Positions 10,562 through 27,290 of a DNA stretch of 32,728 nucleotides are shown here, piece after piece. The position numbers and the translations under genes were made by a program. The notes under the pieces are model-generated. The model was not told the origin of the DNA, made no database searches, and worked only from the letters and a program-made list of their open reading frames with translations. Location of the stretch: IMG/VR virus record IMGVR_UViG_2663762948_000007, positions 1 through 32,728 of that record; one strand, given 5' to 3'. This stretch comes from a virus (taxonomy: Duplodnaviria > Heunggongvirae > Uroviricota > Caudoviricetes). Numbering within the stretch: position 1 is the first letter of the stretch; each line of letters begins with the position of its first letter.

Positions 10562-11866
10562 CTAAGCGGCCTGTTTCATCGGAGATTGTTCAAAGGAAAT
10601 ATCGGGGAATACGTGGTTATGCAGTTCTCTCAGGGCCAGAGCCTGAACAGCAGGATTGCTGCTTTCGAGATTTTTCAGTTGCGTCAGGTTGAGCTGAACG
10701 GTGTAAATGTCACCCCCTTCAATCGGTGGCATATTCTCAAGACGGCGCACGTCATTGCGGGACATCCACCCATTCTGGAGCGCACTGGTATAGTACGCAG
10801 CACGGCCCGCGCTGTCGGCGCGCAGCAGTCCTTCTACAGAGAACTCCGCGAAAACCTCATCATCGCTGTCCAGCAGGCACCGTCCTATTTCCTGCTCTAT
10901 GTTCACCAGCAGGGGGCGCAGGGTGTGCGTCAGGAACTGGAGGTTCATACCCTCAAGACTCGATGCCCAGCTGCTCTGTTTCGATGTGTGGCCGACCATA
11001 AATGGCGGTACGCGGAACCATCTGCAGATTTCCTCGATGCTGAACGACCGCGACTCAAGCATCTGCGCTGCTTCCGGGTTCATAGTGACGTTCTGATATT
11101 TCAGCCCGCCCTCAAGAACCATAATTTTTCCGGCGTTTTTAGAACCGGTAAAGGCCTGCATATAGCCCCGAAGTCGCTCTCTTTGATCCTTATCAAGCGC
11201 CACGTCAGCTGAAAGAAACCCGGAGCTTTGCAGGCCATTTTCGAAAATCTTTGCAGCGGATTCTTCGACGGCCATCGCCGCGCCGATCACGTCACGACCT
11301 GTCATCATTGGCATCATGCCGCAGACACCATCAAGGCCAAATCCCCGGATGTGCATCAGGTTCTTTTCGGGAATAACTCGTTTTTTGCCGTCCTCGGTGT
11401 AGGTGTATTCCAGCCTCCCGGTATCCAGCCGCTTTACTACCATGTTCTGGGGCATCAATGGCACCAGAGAAACCAGCTTATTGCCGATAAACAGCTTCTC
11501 GACAAAGGCATTACCGCGTAGGCAAATACTGGCGACCACCATCAACATAAAGCGTGATGGTGTCATTTCTGAATTGGGTCGGCGGCACAGTATCGAATAA
11601 GCCGGATGATCTGTTGCCGCTTTACGCGAACCGTCAGGCTGTCGAACGTATATTTTCAGCGGAAGGGTTGAAATAGACTCGCTTAACAGCCTTACGCATG
11701 CCCATACAGCCGATAGCTGGATGGCTTTATCGGCCGTGACCACCTTTCCGCTGCTGCTGGTACCAAACCATTCCTCCCAGAACGTGCCGGTAGTCAGGCT
11801 GATAGGCACACCAAGCCAGTTAAGCAGAGCGCTTTTCACCCTGCCTGGCTGTTTGTTTTTTTTCAT
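10562..11866 (-). CDS. Portal protein
   Basis: 434 aa, position between terminase and protease. Confidence 0.9.
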   Translation of the reverse strand: MKKNKQPGRVKSALLNWLGVPISLTTGTFWEEWFGTSSSGKVVTADKAIQLSAVWACVRLLSESISTLPLKIYVRQPDGSRKAATDHPAYSILCRRPNSEMTPSRFMLMVVASICLRGNAFVEKLFIGNKLVSLVPLMPQNMVVKRLDTGRLEYTYTEDGKKRVIPEKNLMHIRGFGLDGVCGMMPMMTGRDVIGAAMAVEESAAKIFENGLQSSGFLSADVALDKDQRERLRGYMQAFTGSKNAGKIMVLEGGLKYQNVTMNPEAAQMLESRSFSIEEICRWFRVPPFMVGHTSKQSSWASSLEGMNLQFLTHTLRPLLVNIEQEIGRCLLDSDDEVFAEFSVEGLLRADSAGRAAYYTSALQNGWMSRNDVRRLENMPPIEGGDIYTVQLNLTQLKNLESSNPAVQALALRELHNHVFPDISFEQSPMKQAA

Positions 11867-13602
11867 CAGAAACCTACCATGATGGGATTATTGAAGAATC
11901 CGGAGAGATCCTGCTGGTCGTTGCCACCGTTAACCAGAACGCGGCTCATTGCTGTGAACAAGGCCGCAGGGCCATCAATTTTGGCCTCTGGTGTGGACTT
12001 ATTCGGGAAAATGTTCTCGTTCCGGTCAGGTTTGACGGTTACGTTGGACATCATCCAGTTCATCACCGGGTGATCGCTGTGATGGAAGCGGCCACCGTAT
12101 ACCAGCGCTTCGACCTCTTTCATCGCCTCAGAGAAATTGCGAACCGTCTGCGGCACTTCCACCAGCGGCAACCCTTCTTCTGCCAGCGCAAGGCTGAACT
12201 GCGTCGCACTCCACGGGTCGAAGCCAATTTCTTTCAGGCTCTCGCCAGCAACCCACAGCTGTAGCTCTTCCTTAATCTGAGCATGGTCGATTACATCACC
12301 GTCGGTAAGGATCAGCTTGTCCATCCCGGCCCACTTACGATAGAGCTCTGCCATCTGGCGTGAACATTTCTCAAGGCGTCCTTCCGGTAGCCAGAATTTG
12401 AAATCCGCATGAACGTGGCCATCTGGCGCCCGCCAGACTTTAGCGGCCGCACAGATATCAATTTTGTTTGACAGGTCAACGCCCACCCAGGAGGGATAGG
12501 TTTTAAGTTCGTGCTGCGGGGCGATAAACTCGCATTTCTCCCATTTCATCATGTCCATCCAGGCTGACTCAGCGGTAACCCAGATATTCATGTGCTTGGT
12601 GAAAAAGTTAATTCTGGCCGAAACTTGCTCTTTCGCCTTTTTAGCCAGGCGGCGCAGGTCATCCCAGCGCTTACAGATACCCAGCCCCGGATTCGCCTTC
12701 TGCCAGACTTTTTCATCAAAGGGATCGTCACCTTCATCTAAGGTGTAGATAATGGCAAAAAACGTATCGTCTTTTACCAGCCCACGCAGCACCTTGATGG
12801 CGTAATCACGCAATTCGTAGCAGATGCCTTCTTTGTTGAAACCGGCGGTGGTGATACCGAAAAGCAGCGATTGCAGACGCGCACCGGTTGCCGTCTCCAG
12901 AACGTCCCAGACGTCACGGGTTTTGTGAGCATGCAGCTCGTCTACGATAGCGCAGTGGATGTTCAGACCATCGAGGTTGTTCGCATCTGATGATAATGGC
13001 TCGAACTTGGAGGCCGTTTGCTCCTGGTAGATAGCGAGCTTGTTGAATTCGAAGATCCGCCCAAGCGTGGCTTTCGCCTTTTTGACCATATTCTTCGCGT
13101 CTTCAAAAACAATTCGAGCCTGGTCACGGGTGGTTGCAGCGGAATAAACCTCAGCACCGCCCTCGCCGTCGGCGCCAGCCATATAAAGCCCCACGCCGGA
13201 GCAAAGCGTTGATTTGGCATTTTTACGGGCTACCTCAACATCTGCTGTACGAAAGCGCCTAACCATTACTGGACGACCGCTGCCGTCATTACGCAGGACG
13301 GTTTCTCCCGTTTCTTCGTTAACCAGCGGGATAACGAAACCAAAAATATTAATCAGGATGAAAACGTGCCAGTCCATCAGCTCAATAGGCTGTCCTGCCA
13401 GCGCGCCTTTTACGTGAGGCACAAAATTATAGAAATTCAGAATGTGCTGTGCGCGCGGCTCACTGAAGAAAATACCGCGCTCTTCGCCGTGTGCCAGATC
13501 GTCAAGGAAACGCTGACAGGCAAGGCGCACATACTCACAGGCAATAATTTCCCCCGCCACCACCCTCTCGGCGTAGCGGATGCCTTCTGCAACCTTAGCC
13601 AT
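11866..13602 (-). CDS. Terminase large subunit
   Basis: 578 aa, ATPase N-terminus and nuclease C-terminus pattern. Confidence 0.9.
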   Translation of the reverse strand: MAKVAEGIRYAERVVAGEIIACEYVRLACQRFLDDLAHGEERGIFFSEPRAQHILNFYNFVPHVKGALAGQPIELMDWHVFILINIFGFVIPLVNEETGETVLRNDGSGRPVMVRRFRTADVEVARKNAKSTLCSGVGLYMAGADGEGGAEVYSAATTRDQARIVFEDAKNMVKKAKATLGRIFEFNKLAIYQEQTASKFEPLSSDANNLDGLNIHCAIVDELHAHKTRDVWDVLETATGARLQSLLFGITTAGFNKEGICYELRDYAIKVLRGLVKDDTFFAIIYTLDEGDDPFDEKVWQKANPGLGICKRWDDLRRLAKKAKEQVSARINFFTKHMNIWVTAESAWMDMMKWEKCEFIAPQHELKTYPSWVGVDLSNKIDICAAAKVWRAPDGHVHADFKFWLPEGRLEKCSRQMAELYRKWAGMDKLILTDGDVIDHAQIKEELQLWVAGESLKEIGFDPWSATQFSLALAEEGLPLVEVPQTVRNFSEAMKEVEALVYGGRFHHSDHPVMNWMMSNVTVKPDRNENIFPNKSTPEAKIDGPAALFTAMSRVLVNGGNDQQDLSGFFNNPIMVGF

Positions 13603-14075
13603 TAATCCCTCGCTTTCATAAACTCGGCCAGCGGGTCAACCGCATCAGGGCCTTTTGCATTCACTTTCGAGCGACTGGCTGGCGTCATGCCGAACTCACC
13701 AAGCATGGCGCGCAGACGTTTCCAGGCATCAGCTTTCATGATGGCGGCGGGATGAGCCTTGATCAGCACATCCCCGCTCTGCGTTTCGGTCCGGTAGGTG
13801 TAGCCCTCAACTTCAAGCGTGTCGCAGTGATGCCGGTATTCGGTATAAGCCTCAACCAGCAGCTCAAGGGCTCTGGCGTCCAGCTGAGACATCACACCGA
13901 TAGCATCAAGCTCGTCGGCCATCCGTTTAAACCAGTATTTCCCCTGCTTGTCGAAATGCTTCGGCGTTGTGGGTACCCCTGAAGGGGGTTTTGGTTCGTT
14001 CTCATTGATTGGGCGCTTTGATGGGTTACCCCTCACCAAACGTAGATGGGTCGGGGTTTTCGGTGGTCCAGACAT
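13602..14075 (-). CDS. Terminase small subunit (P27 family)
   Basis: 157 aa, directly upstream of and overlapping TerL start; HNH partner adjacent. Confidence 0.8.
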   Translation of the reverse strand: MSGPPKTPTHLRLVRGNPSKRPINENEPKPPSGVPTTPKHFDKQGKYWFKRMADELDAIGVMSQLDARALELLVEAYTEYRHHCDTLEVEGYTYRTETQSGDVLIKAHPAAIMKADAWKRLRAMLGEFGMTPASRSKVNAKGPDAVDPLAEFMKARD

Positions 14076-14272
14076 AATCGAAAACTCCTATTAATCATCG
14101 AATGGGGGACCCCATAAAAAAGTTTTCTAACCTGCGGCGATGTGAAAAGAGGTTAGGCGGCGGTCCTTAGCAGCATGGGGTCTGAACTTTTGACCCGCCC
14201 CCCAGCAAATGATAATCGTTTTCATTAAATATGAAATGATTGCATTTGAAATCAAATATTTGATATTGATTC
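14076..14272. other. Putative cos (cohesive end) region between HNH and small terminase genes
   Basis: Nested inverted repeats GACCCCAT...ATGGGGTC and CTAACCT...AGGTTAG, then AT-rich palindromic tract; position as in HK97-type packaging modules. Confidence 0.4.
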
Positions 14273-14623
14273 TCATTTGAACCGTTCGCGGCCAGTCTTC
14301 GACCTATGACAGGGCCAGCAAAGAGATTCGAGGTTGCTCATGTCGTCCGTGCCACCATTGGCCTTAGCGATGATGTGGTCAACGGTCTTTGCGGGAGAGA
14401 TCAGATTGTTGCGCTTGCAGTTCTGGCACAAATGTTTGTCCCGAGTAAGCACGGTGGCTCTTAGAACATCCCATTTGCTACCATATCCCCGTTGCTGTCG
14501 GCTCTGACCTCGTTGATGCTGTTGCCAGCCTTCATTGCGGTGTTTATCACAATAGCCTGAGCGGTCAGTGGTTGTGCCAGGGCAGCCACGCTTGCGGCAT
14601 GCTCTCGGTATTAACGCAGGCAT
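14273..14623 (-). CDS. HNH endonuclease (terminase-associated)
   Basis: Cys-rich HNH motifs; SD GGAGG 8 nt before ATG at 14623 (ORF track start 14638 is GTG). Confidence 0.85.
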   Translation of the reverse strand: MPALIPRACRKRGCPGTTTDRSGYCDKHRNEGWQQHQRGQSRQQRGYGSKWDVLRATVLTRDKHLCQNCKRNNLISPAKTVDHIIAKANGGTDDMSNLESLCWPCHRSKTGRERFK

Positions 14624-14627
14624 CAGG

Positions 14628-14723
14628 CTAACCTCCACGCCCGACGGCGTTCTGGTTCATGACCAGCTTGTAAATCTCTAACTGGAATTTCTGTTCTTCA
14701 GTCATGGGAATAATCTCTGCCAT
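14628..14723 (-). CDS. Possible 31-aa small protein (MAEIIPMTEEQKFQLEIYKLVMNQNAVGRGG)
   Basis: ATG with SD GGAG at 8 nt; stop 2 nt before the HNH start, suggesting translational coupling; below ORF-track threshold. Confidence 0.3.
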   Translation of the reverse strand: MAEIIPMTEEQKFQLEIYKLVMNQNAVGRGG

Positions 14724-15025: not shown

Positions 15026-15496
15026 TTAAATGATTTGCCAGTCTTCGGACAGAACATCAGTCTGACTAGCCAGCCACGGTACTAATTTATCGTCCGCTGT
15101 CTTCATGCAAATGCATGGCAGCGTCACAAGGCCATTAACTCCGTCCAGGTCACACTCAAACCCCCAAGCATTCTGCTGGATAATGAACAGATACATCCCC
15201 TTACCATTCCAGCCAGCACGGGCAACTTTATTCCCCAACTTGAGCGCTTCAATGGCAAGGCCGAAACTTAGCCCTGATACCGGACGATAAGCCTTTTCGA
15301 ATACTTCTTTTGGACTCCAGCTAACGTAGCCATCAAAGCGATCGGTGTTAGGTTTTCCGCCATCAAGATATTCAACCAGATAGCCTTCATCCTCGCCGTT
15401 TTCTCCGGCAGGAAGCTGCCAGCCACGAAAATCGTTATATGCCTGTCTCGTCATCAGAAAGGCGTTAATCAGTTTTACGCCAATATGCTGGGTCAT
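15026..15496 (-). CDS. DUF2829 (Tad2-like) domain protein with about 75-aa N-terminal extension
   Basis: C-terminal half carries recalled DUF2829 hallmarks (ALKxGxKVARxGWNGKGMYL ... LVPWLASQTDVLSEDW); sits in post-Rz moron slot. Confidence 0.55.
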   Translation of the reverse strand: MTQHIGVKLINAFLMTRQAYNDFRGWQLPAGENGEDEGYLVEYLDGGKPNTDRFDGYVSWSPKEVFEKAYRPVSGLSFGLAIEALKLGNKVARAGWNGKGMYLFIIQQNAWGFECDLDGVNGLVTLPCICMKTADDKLVPWLASQTDVLSEDWQII

Positions 15497-27053: not shown

Positions 27054-27125
27054 GCGCGGCGTTACCGCATACCAATAACGCTTCACTCGAGGCGTTTTTC
27101 GTTATGTATAAATAAGGAGCACACC

Positions 27126-27290
27126 ATGCAATATGCCATTGCAGGGTGGCCTGTTGCTGGCTGCCCTTCCGAATCTTTACTTGAACGAATCACCCGTAAA
27201 TTACGTGACGGATGGAAACGCCTTATCGACATACTTAATCAGCCAGGAGTCCCAAAAAATGGATCAAACACTTATGGCTATCCAGACTAA
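27126..27290 (+). CDS. cIII: cIII (FtsH inhibitor)
   Basis: 54 aa MQYAIAGWPVAGCPSESLLERITRKLRDGWKRLIDILNQ..., matches lambda cIII; SD AAGGAG; below ORF-track threshold. Confidence 0.9.
   Translation: MQYAIAGWPVAGCPSESLLERITRKLRDGWKRLIDILNQPGVPKNGSNTYGYPD

Follow-up and report, generated by a model that had tools for sequence, protein, structure and literature searches.

The 197-bp intergenic gap at 14272-14076 of the window, the whole 32,728-nucleotide stretch of DNA that was analysed, is most likely the cos site of an mEp235-like lambdoid phage with an HK97-type packaging module (probability about 0.85). This identification follows from the gene content around the gap, from direct DNA homology to the HK97 cos site, and from the records of related phages that end inside the gap. 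The same three lines of evidence back the proposal of an earlier, sequence-only reading that the HNH-cos-TerS-TerL arrangement is the packaging module of HK97-like phages. That reading had also taken nested inverted repeats as the hallmark of the site, a view that did not hold: shuffled sequences and comparison with relatives show that other determinants are conserved. What relatives keep is a G-tract/TCAAA box, the ACCGCCGCC core at a constant spacing from this box, and, on the TerS side, a block whose end is a T-run. The site is very likely an ordinary member of the known and widespread HK97-type cos family, which is HNH-assisted and has 3' cohesive ends.

Packaging genes around the gap

All genes around the gap lie on the - strand. 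Their order, established from the ORFs and their Pfam matches, is lysis cassette, Tad2-like ORF, HNH, gap, TerS, TerL and portal, so that the gap is located between the HNH gene and terS and upstream of terL and portal, as in HK97-type cos sites. The sequence-only reading had named an HNH gene and a P27-type small terminase gene as the flanking genes, and profile matches confirm both. The HNH endonuclease gene (14273..14638, - strand) encodes 121 aa with a match to PF01844 at 2.2e-15, and the small terminase gene (13602..14075, - strand) encodes a 157-aa P27-family protein matching PF05119 (Terminase_4) at 9e-25. The ribosome-binding site of TerS, AGGAG, is found at 14089-14085 on the - strand. 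The large terminase gene (11866..13602, - strand, 578 aa) is of the HK97 family, the type found with HK97-type cos sites; it carries PF03354 and PF20441 (TerL_ATPase and TerL_nuclease), the same Pfam pair as HK97 gp2, to which it is 28% identical over 465 aa (E 4e-39). It is followed by the portal protein gene (10562..11866, - strand; PF04860 at 3.6e-104).

The HNH protein begins with an N-terminal zinc ribbon (CRKRGC...YCDKH), after which comes the HNH domain. It aligns over its full length with the HNH nickase of phage GVE2 (5h0m, E 7.8e-15), in an alignment where CxxxxC...CxxH and CxxC...CxxH motifs are visible, and it is 33% identical to HK97 gp74 over 69 aa. The zinc ribbon, the HNH domain, a length within the ~120-130 aa range and the position adjoining terS are those of the zinc-ribbon HNH nickases of the N.phiGamma/GVE2 type, and the protein is best described as a putative accessory nuclease of packaging. 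For TerS, a Foldseek search of the structural model against the PDB gave no match, and a sequence search against the PDB gave chance-level matches only.

In two IMG/VR loci an extra gene is present between the HNH gene and cos. One of them, L049, has a 210-aa ORF (517-1149) that by eye resembles a second homing-type endonuclease, and the other, L081, has a 66-aa cysteine-rich ORF (807-1007). Zinc-ribbon proteins adjoining packaging HNH genes were described by Xu and Gupta (PMC3592412).

The closest phage is mEp235, with 98.6% identity over the region. Because the head and packaging genes are mEp235-like and the window from ~15.9 kb onward is ~95% identical to the lambda early region, the window is a mosaic lambdoid phage or prophage. 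A lambda CIII thermoregulator RNA element (RF01804, 88.5 bits) is located at 27113-27171 on the + strand. Between the lysis cassette and the HNH gene, a 156-aa ORF (15026-15496, - strand) contains a Thoeris anti-defence Tad2-like domain in residues 77-156 (PF11195, E 2.8e-26) and is a possible anti-defence moron. The whole region was found in none of the complete E. coli RefSeq genomes; the best match agrees exactly with the window as far as 14168 and departs from it beyond that point, a sign of mosaicism.

A cleavage half conserved across genera

Read on the - strand, the window has the form GGGGGGCGGGTCAAA-N24-ACCGCCGCCTAA|CCTCT..., and HK97, read in the packaging direction, has the form GGGGGGGGGATCAAA-N24-ACCGCCGCCAAA|GTTTG..., where the bar marks a nick. 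The common plan is therefore GGGGGGCGGGTCAAA-N24-ACCGCCGCC in the window and GGGGGGGGGATCAAA-N24-ACCGCCGCC in HK97. Alignment with cos regions of HK97-like phages had been suggested as a check on the cos assignment, and its outcome is favourable: the gap aligns with the HK97 cos site, and 27 non-redundant cos regions anchored on the core fall into one ungapped register, from about -54 to +37 (signed positions are counted in the packaging direction from the predicted top-strand nick). The set comprises phages and prophages of E. coli, Klebsiella, Morganella, Proteus, Xenorhabdus, Edwardsiella and Pantoea, together with HK97 and HK75.

Within this register, positions -54 to -37 hold a conserved box made up of a G-tract and [T/A]NAAA. 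It is followed by a variable stretch at -36 to -17 and then by a nearly invariant AAAGGACCGCCGCC, after which the P27-TerS clade has CCTYTTTTCACAYCGCCGCAGGTTAGAAAACTTTTTT. The hexamer ACCGCC is invariant in all 27 representatives. In the window, the upstream element consists of the G-tract GGGGGGCGGG and then TCAAA (14189..14203, - strand, -51 to -37 from the top-strand nick). It is in register with the 27 cos regions, HK97 included, and is also present in Bacillus phage Gamma; 24 variable bases separate it (14203-14189) from the invariant ACCGCCGCC core. Core and upstream element together are homologous to those of HK97, HK75, Gamma, Pm34 and AH07.

A scan of IMG/VR for GGGTCRAA-N(21-27)-ACCGCCGCC returned at least 120 stretches. 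The spacing was exactly 24 nt in 82 of the 120 matches listed, with 1-10 matches for each other length. Since 24 nt dominates among the listed matches, the distance from G-tract to core appears to be under selection, and the site family appears to be widespread.

Predicted nicks and the ends of related records

The sequence-only reading held that nick positions cannot be read from sequence alone. This was too pessimistic: homologous phages whose ends are known allow a prediction, and the positions given here were transferred from them. The cleavage core, placed by homology to these ends, is GGAC|CGCCGCCTAA| at 14153..14166 on the - strand. Cleavage is predicted to leave a 10-nt 3' overhang, 5'-CGCCGCCTAA-3', running from 14162 down to 14153. 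The + strand would be nicked at 14162|14163, reading GGCG|GTCC (that is, CG|GT), and the - strand at 14153|14152, reading TAA|CCT. One predicted terminus is then 14152, where the - strand sequence begins CCTCTTTT, and the other is 14163, where the + strand sequence begins GTCCTTAG; the right-end strand is predicted to finish ...GCCGCCTAA. The string GACCGCCGCC occurs as one exact copy in the whole window.

In HK97, cleavage takes place where the two ends of the record join, and leaves a 3' overhang of 10 nt; PMC9410871 gives the overhang as 10 nt in a figure legend and as 12 nt in its Discussion. Among related records, whose termini depend on the methods of the depositors (verified for AH07 only), those of HK97, HK022 and HK75 end at -1, and the last 10 nt of the HK75 record, CGCCGCCAAA, are annotated as the cos site. 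For HK633 and Aeromonas phage AsXd-1 the last base of the record is -11, and the ends of the Proteus phage Pm34 record (TerS 70% identical) join as GGAC|CGCCCCCTTA, at -11/-10. The ends of Pantoea phage AH07 (MZ501270.1; TerS 43% identical) were determined from Illumina reads by PAUSE and PhageTerm. Its record ends ...CCTGAC (-11) and starts CCTTTTT... (+1), and is 10 nt short relative to prophage ST13phi12.2, a loss that would be expected if a 3' overhang had been removed during library end repair. The Fraca record (LR597645.1) has a chimeric start, in which a misassembled terL fragment is fused at CCTC, equivalent to +1 to +4. In the record of Bacillus phage Gamma, GTAC stands before a terminal repeat of 9 nt, CGCCGCCCC, and this cohesive end has been experimentally confirmed for Wbeta-group phages (PMC8878798).

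Two records were tried and set aside as uninformative on ends, that of mEp235, which starts at the terS ATG, and that of GVE2, which starts inside the HNH gene. A full-text literature search for the overhang strings returned only primers in unrelated papers.

The nearest relative, IMG/VR locus IMGVR_UViG_3300045988_078236, is the only locus with the upstream cos half of the window. Its differences from the window are at -2 of the predicted overhang (CGCCGCCTAG versus TAA) and at a single base of the AT-rich tract. Across the family, the last three overhang bases vary, with TAA, TAG, CAA, TGA, TTA, AAA and AGT all represented.

Proposed assignment of the two nicks

HNH enzymes of this kind, encoded next to cos and terminase genes, are nickases, as reported by Xu and Gupta (PMC3592412); in the same work, the N.phiGamma and GVE2 enzymes nick CG|GT (AC^CG), and the phi105 enzyme nicks YG|GTY. 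The only ACCG/CGGT in the gap is located exactly at the inferred + strand nick. Because CG|GT is the published nick site of homologous HNH nickases, the HNH protein probably cuts the + strand at this position, and TerL the other strand. In phage Gamma, the cohesive-end boundary AC|CG coincides with the nick site of its own HNH enzyme. In phi105, whose annotated cos is GGAGACC|GCGCTCC|CCTC, a YG|GTY site lies 1 nt off the annotated boundary.

A broader proposal can be put forward tentatively, at a little under even odds. The ACCG at the bottom-strand nick may be the recognition and nick site of the HNH enzyme itself, and the composite of G-tract-TCRAA, 24 nt and AC|CGCCGCC may represent one ancient cos family, common to the Bacillus Wbeta/Gamma phages and the enterobacterial HK97-like phages, whose TerS half is swapped according to TerS type. 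If true, this would settle strand assignment in HK97-type cos cleavage, with HNH on the CG|GT strand and TerL on the other, 9-10 nt away. A cos family common to Gamma and HK97-like phages was not found stated in the searchable literature.

With ACCG/CGGT occurring at 8.7 per kb in the window, the match could instead be a coincidence of a GC-rich core: the gap would still be a cos site, with TerL making both nicks and the HNH protein only activating TerL. According to reviews of HK97, gp74 stimulates the cleavage carried out by terminase and is not needed in vitro when the concentration of terminase is high, and a 2024 model includes the alternative that TerL cuts, translocates 10 nt and cuts a second time. 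Coincidence is harder to reconcile with a motif that is placed precisely on the nick, does not vary in any relative, and forms the cohesive-end boundary in Gamma, whose own HNH enzyme nicks AC^CG. The two nick contexts, TAA|CCT and GCG|GTC, also have no common symmetry, which fits two different nucleases. Cleavage of both strands by TerL is thus a serious alternative, although a doubtful one.

The preferred assignment, HNH on the + strand and TerL on the other, is nevertheless kept conditional because of three points. HK97 gp74 has no zinc ribbon and is described as non-specific (PMC3592412); it is known only to stimulate cos cleavage in vitro, and whether it cuts one strand is left open in the HK97 literature; and one report (PMC8878798) gives the CGCCGCCCC end of the Wbeta/Gamma group as a 5' overhang. 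The last point conflicts with the 3' polarity expected both from homology to HK97 and from the strand nicked by the HNH enzyme, and would reverse the CG|GT strand logic for the Wbeta group.

The TerS side of the site

On the other side of the cut, TerS probably binds CGCCGCAGGTTAGAAAACTTTTTT (14116..14139, - strand), which spans +14 to +37. The site is placed here by analogy, because the HK97 TerS site covers +15 to +29 and ends in an A-tract; HK97 TerS contacts the bases at positions 16 and 21, and the A-tract at 24-29, which is essential, passes through the ring of TerS. The block in the window contains the second GCGGCG copy, the arm complementary to AGGTTAG, and an A/T tract. It is nearly invariant across relatives with TerS identity of at least 70%, and is the best-conserved non-coding DNA in the TerS clade. 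The clade with 41-43% TerS identity has a different block, CACAACCGCGAAATGAAAAGTTTTTT, and HK97 has CTAACCCGATTTTTTT; all three finish with a T-run, whose distance from the cut is similar in each. As the cleavage half is common to unrelated TerS types, its conservation fits recognition by TerL and/or HNH. The ATG of TerS is at +78 from the predicted nick.

Beyond the putative TerS block lies a local palindrome, ATGGGGTCCCCCAT (14102..14115, - strand, +38 to +51). In ATGGGGTCCCCCAT, the GGGG-NN-CCCC core is kept and the centre is variable. Other lineages have different palindromes at +38 to +51 (TTGGGGAACCCCAA, CCGGGATACCCGG and GGGGATCCCC), and the 716R1/phi467 clade has none. A structure at this position was considered and is not claimed, as covariation and pair count are weakly above controls.

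Alternative explanations for the gap

Headful (pac) packaging, or a cos site elsewhere with the gap serving as an intergenic or regulatory spacer of the late operon, is very unlikely. In its favour, several database records of relatives start arbitrarily, as mEp235 (JQ182731) does at the terS ATG. Multiple independent records nonetheless end inside the gap, and the relatives have defined ends. The TerL belongs to the HK97 cos family, and the non-coding DNA is better conserved across genera than the neighbouring coding DNA. Scans of the gap for promoters, terminators and Rfam families gave no match, which argues against a regulatory spacer.

The inverted repeats named in the sequence-only reading are all present, as a check of their + strand coordinates established. 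The outer arms are GACCCCAT (14108-14115) and ATGGGGTC (14175-14182); nested within them are the inner arms CTAACCT (14127-14133) and AGGTTAG (14150-14156), and the GCGGCG copies are at 14134-14139 and 14157-14162. The outer arm at 14108-14115 is half of the local palindrome ATGGGGTCCCCCAT (14115-14102), whose left half is the arm ATGGGGTC.

If the nested repeats were themselves the functional signal, terminase would recognise a cruciform or a single-stranded hairpin. The predicted single-strand fold does use both pairs, but its stability, at -11.8 kcal/mol, is unremarkable (z = -1.1). When 14076-14272 was shuffled 2000 times with dinucleotides preserved, a 7-mer pair nested in an 8-mer pair arose in only 4% of cases, yet a perfect inverted repeat of at least 8 bp arose in 34.5%, and the repeats are not clearly beyond chance expectation. 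Taken over 23 diverse cos regions of relatives, 44.9% of cells are complementary for the outer pair, and shuffling gives 42.9%. Of 80 IMG/VR loci whose TerS is 96-100% identical, 78 could be anchored by their cos core, and the upstream outer arm is present in 1 of these 78 and missing in the other 77. For the inner pair, 94% of cells are complementary, but a change in one arm is never matched by a change in the other, and the inner arms are therefore conserved as sequence and not as structure. The HK97 cos site has neither repeat. A hairpin or cruciform role was rejected on these shuffles and comparisons, and we give it slightly less weight even than headful packaging.

The AT-rich palindromic tract that had been pointed out is real. 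It extends over 14208..14281 (- strand) and contains two AATGA-N11-TCATT boxes, at ~14278-14258 and 14226-14208, the distal of which contains the HNH stop codon. The sequence AAATATTT (14254-14261) lies within a perfect 14-nt palindrome, ATCAAATATTTGAT (14251-14264), both in + strand coordinates. Most relatives have a single AATGA-N11-TCATT box, overlapping the HNH stop codon; HK97, ST13phi12.2 and L081 also have an AT-rich expansion. The palindrome ATCAAATATTTGAT matches the IHF consensus on both strands, and two of the four IHF pattern matches in the window (1.3 expected) fall in the AT-rich tract. The AATGA boxes and the IHF-like palindrome are candidate accessory sites.

Least credible of all is that coding constraint explains the conservation through a 49-aa ORF spanning cos (14127-14276, - strand): similar ORFs are annotated as hypothetical proteins in some related records, but this one has no Pfam match, its upstream part is wholly different in sequence and length among relatives, its conserved part is kept at the nucleotide level with third positions included, and its frame is not kept in other lineages, so that it was rejected as a gene and is probably spurious.

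The cos core as a mosaic joint and anomalous records

Many relatives cease to be homologous to the window at the borders of the cos core (14149-14168). The Klebsiella phages and E. coli QL57EC part from it at 14168, CharmingMan and Fraca at ~14150-14152. In IMG/VR loci, one and the same TerS-side half occurs with three or more different upstream halves. The cos core acts as a mosaic joint.

Several records are anomalous at this position. CharmingMan (PP925830.1, locus L014, ~750-790) has an inverted cos core, ...GACGCGCC TTAGGCGGCGGTCCTTTGGCGC TTTTCAC..., with one inversion boundary at -1/+1 and CCTC missing. This is probably an assembly artefact at physical ends, with a real inversion as the alternative. 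In PSTRCR_117lys (MW358929.1), ~39 nt are missing across cos. The terL fragment at the start of the Fraca record is 124 nt long, and the cos region is repeated at the other end. HK633 (JQ086377.1), which ends at -11, has an unexplained ACT before +1 at its start.

Proposed mechanism and implications

A packaging mechanism can be proposed from what was observed, namely the gene module, the homology of the DNA to cos sites whose ends are known, and the way in which the elements are conserved and spaced. In the packaging direction, along the - strand, terminase moving on a concatemer would meet the G-tract/TCAAA box and then, 24 bp further, the ACCGCCGCC core. TerS would be bound to CGCCGCAGGTTAGAAAACTTTTTT, ~14-37 bp past the cut, and, as in HK97, the motor would stall and the nucleases would be positioned. 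The zinc-ribbon HNH nickase would cut the bottom strand (the + strand of the window) at CG|GT, 14162|14163, and the TerL nuclease would cut the top strand 10 nt downstream, at 14153|14152. The result would be 10-nt 3' cohesive ends, 5'-CGCCGCCTAA-3', and the next genome would be packaged into terS, terL and portal. The exact nicks, the assignment of enzymes to strands, the TerS site, and any roles of the G-tract, the AT-rich boxes and the local palindrome are the predicted parts of this scheme.

In practical terms, the genome ends, and hence the natural start of the map, can be placed at 14152/14163, and the 49-aa ORF can be dropped from the annotation. For prophages and metagenomic phage contigs that belong to the HK97-type cos family, the fixed motif could serve to locate cos sites and genome ends. 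The site would be a two-part one, with a cleavage half conserved from Bacillus phage Gamma to coliphages and a TerS half that varies with TerS type. The cross-phylum G-tract-to-core architecture, the modularity of the site and the HNH nick motif exactly at one predicted nick go somewhat beyond the literature that was found, and the conserved ACCG bears on the open question in HK97 of which nuclease makes which nick.

Comparison with known systems

The lambda cos site (cosQ-cosN-cosB) follows a similar logic: its nick site lies between an element at ~-40 on the upstream side and a region on the downstream side to which TerS binds, and there is a possible IHF site. It differs in its 12-nt 5' overhang, its cosN, its gpA-family TerL, its winged-helix Nu1 with repeated R sites, and the absence of an HNH protein. 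The gap does not contain GGGCGGCGACCT, the cosN with the 12-nt 5' overhang, and the TerL of the window matches PF03354, PF20441 and HK97 gp2, which places the site outside the lambda type.

AH07 and Pm34 have the same architecture as the window and the same nick positions relative to the core. Pm34, with TerS 70% identical, also has the TerS-side block; in AH07, with TerS 43% identical, that block differs, and the record omits the overhang.

HK97 has the same gene order and a TerL of the same family (28% identity). Its upstream half is built as in the window, with a G-tract and TCAAA, 24 nt and ACCGCCGCC, and its cohesive end, CGCCGCCAAA, differs from the predicted CGCCGCCTAA in the last three bases only. 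Both sites have a T-run ~25-37 nt past the cut, where HK97 TerS binds. The differences are concentrated on the TerS side: the TerS of the window is of the P27 family (PF05119) and has no sequence similarity to HK97 gp1, and the TerS-side DNA is unrelated to that of HK97 and longer, with the ATG at +78 versus +50. The HNH protein of the window has an N-terminal zinc ribbon, whereas HK97 gp74 has none, and the HK97 ends are known by experiment, whereas those of the window are predicted from relatives.

Gamma and Wbeta share with the window a P27-family TerS (TIGR01558) and a zinc-ribbon HNH adjoining cos. Gamma has a G-tract-TCGAA box, 24 nt, AC|CGCCGCC and T at -41, as in the window. It differs in its Firmicute host, its 9-nt end CGCCGCCCC and its TerS-side sequence, and its overhang polarity is reported inconsistently (5' in PMC8878798). 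At the DNA level, the closest described relatives of this site therefore appear to be HK97 and, unexpectedly, Bacillus phage Gamma.
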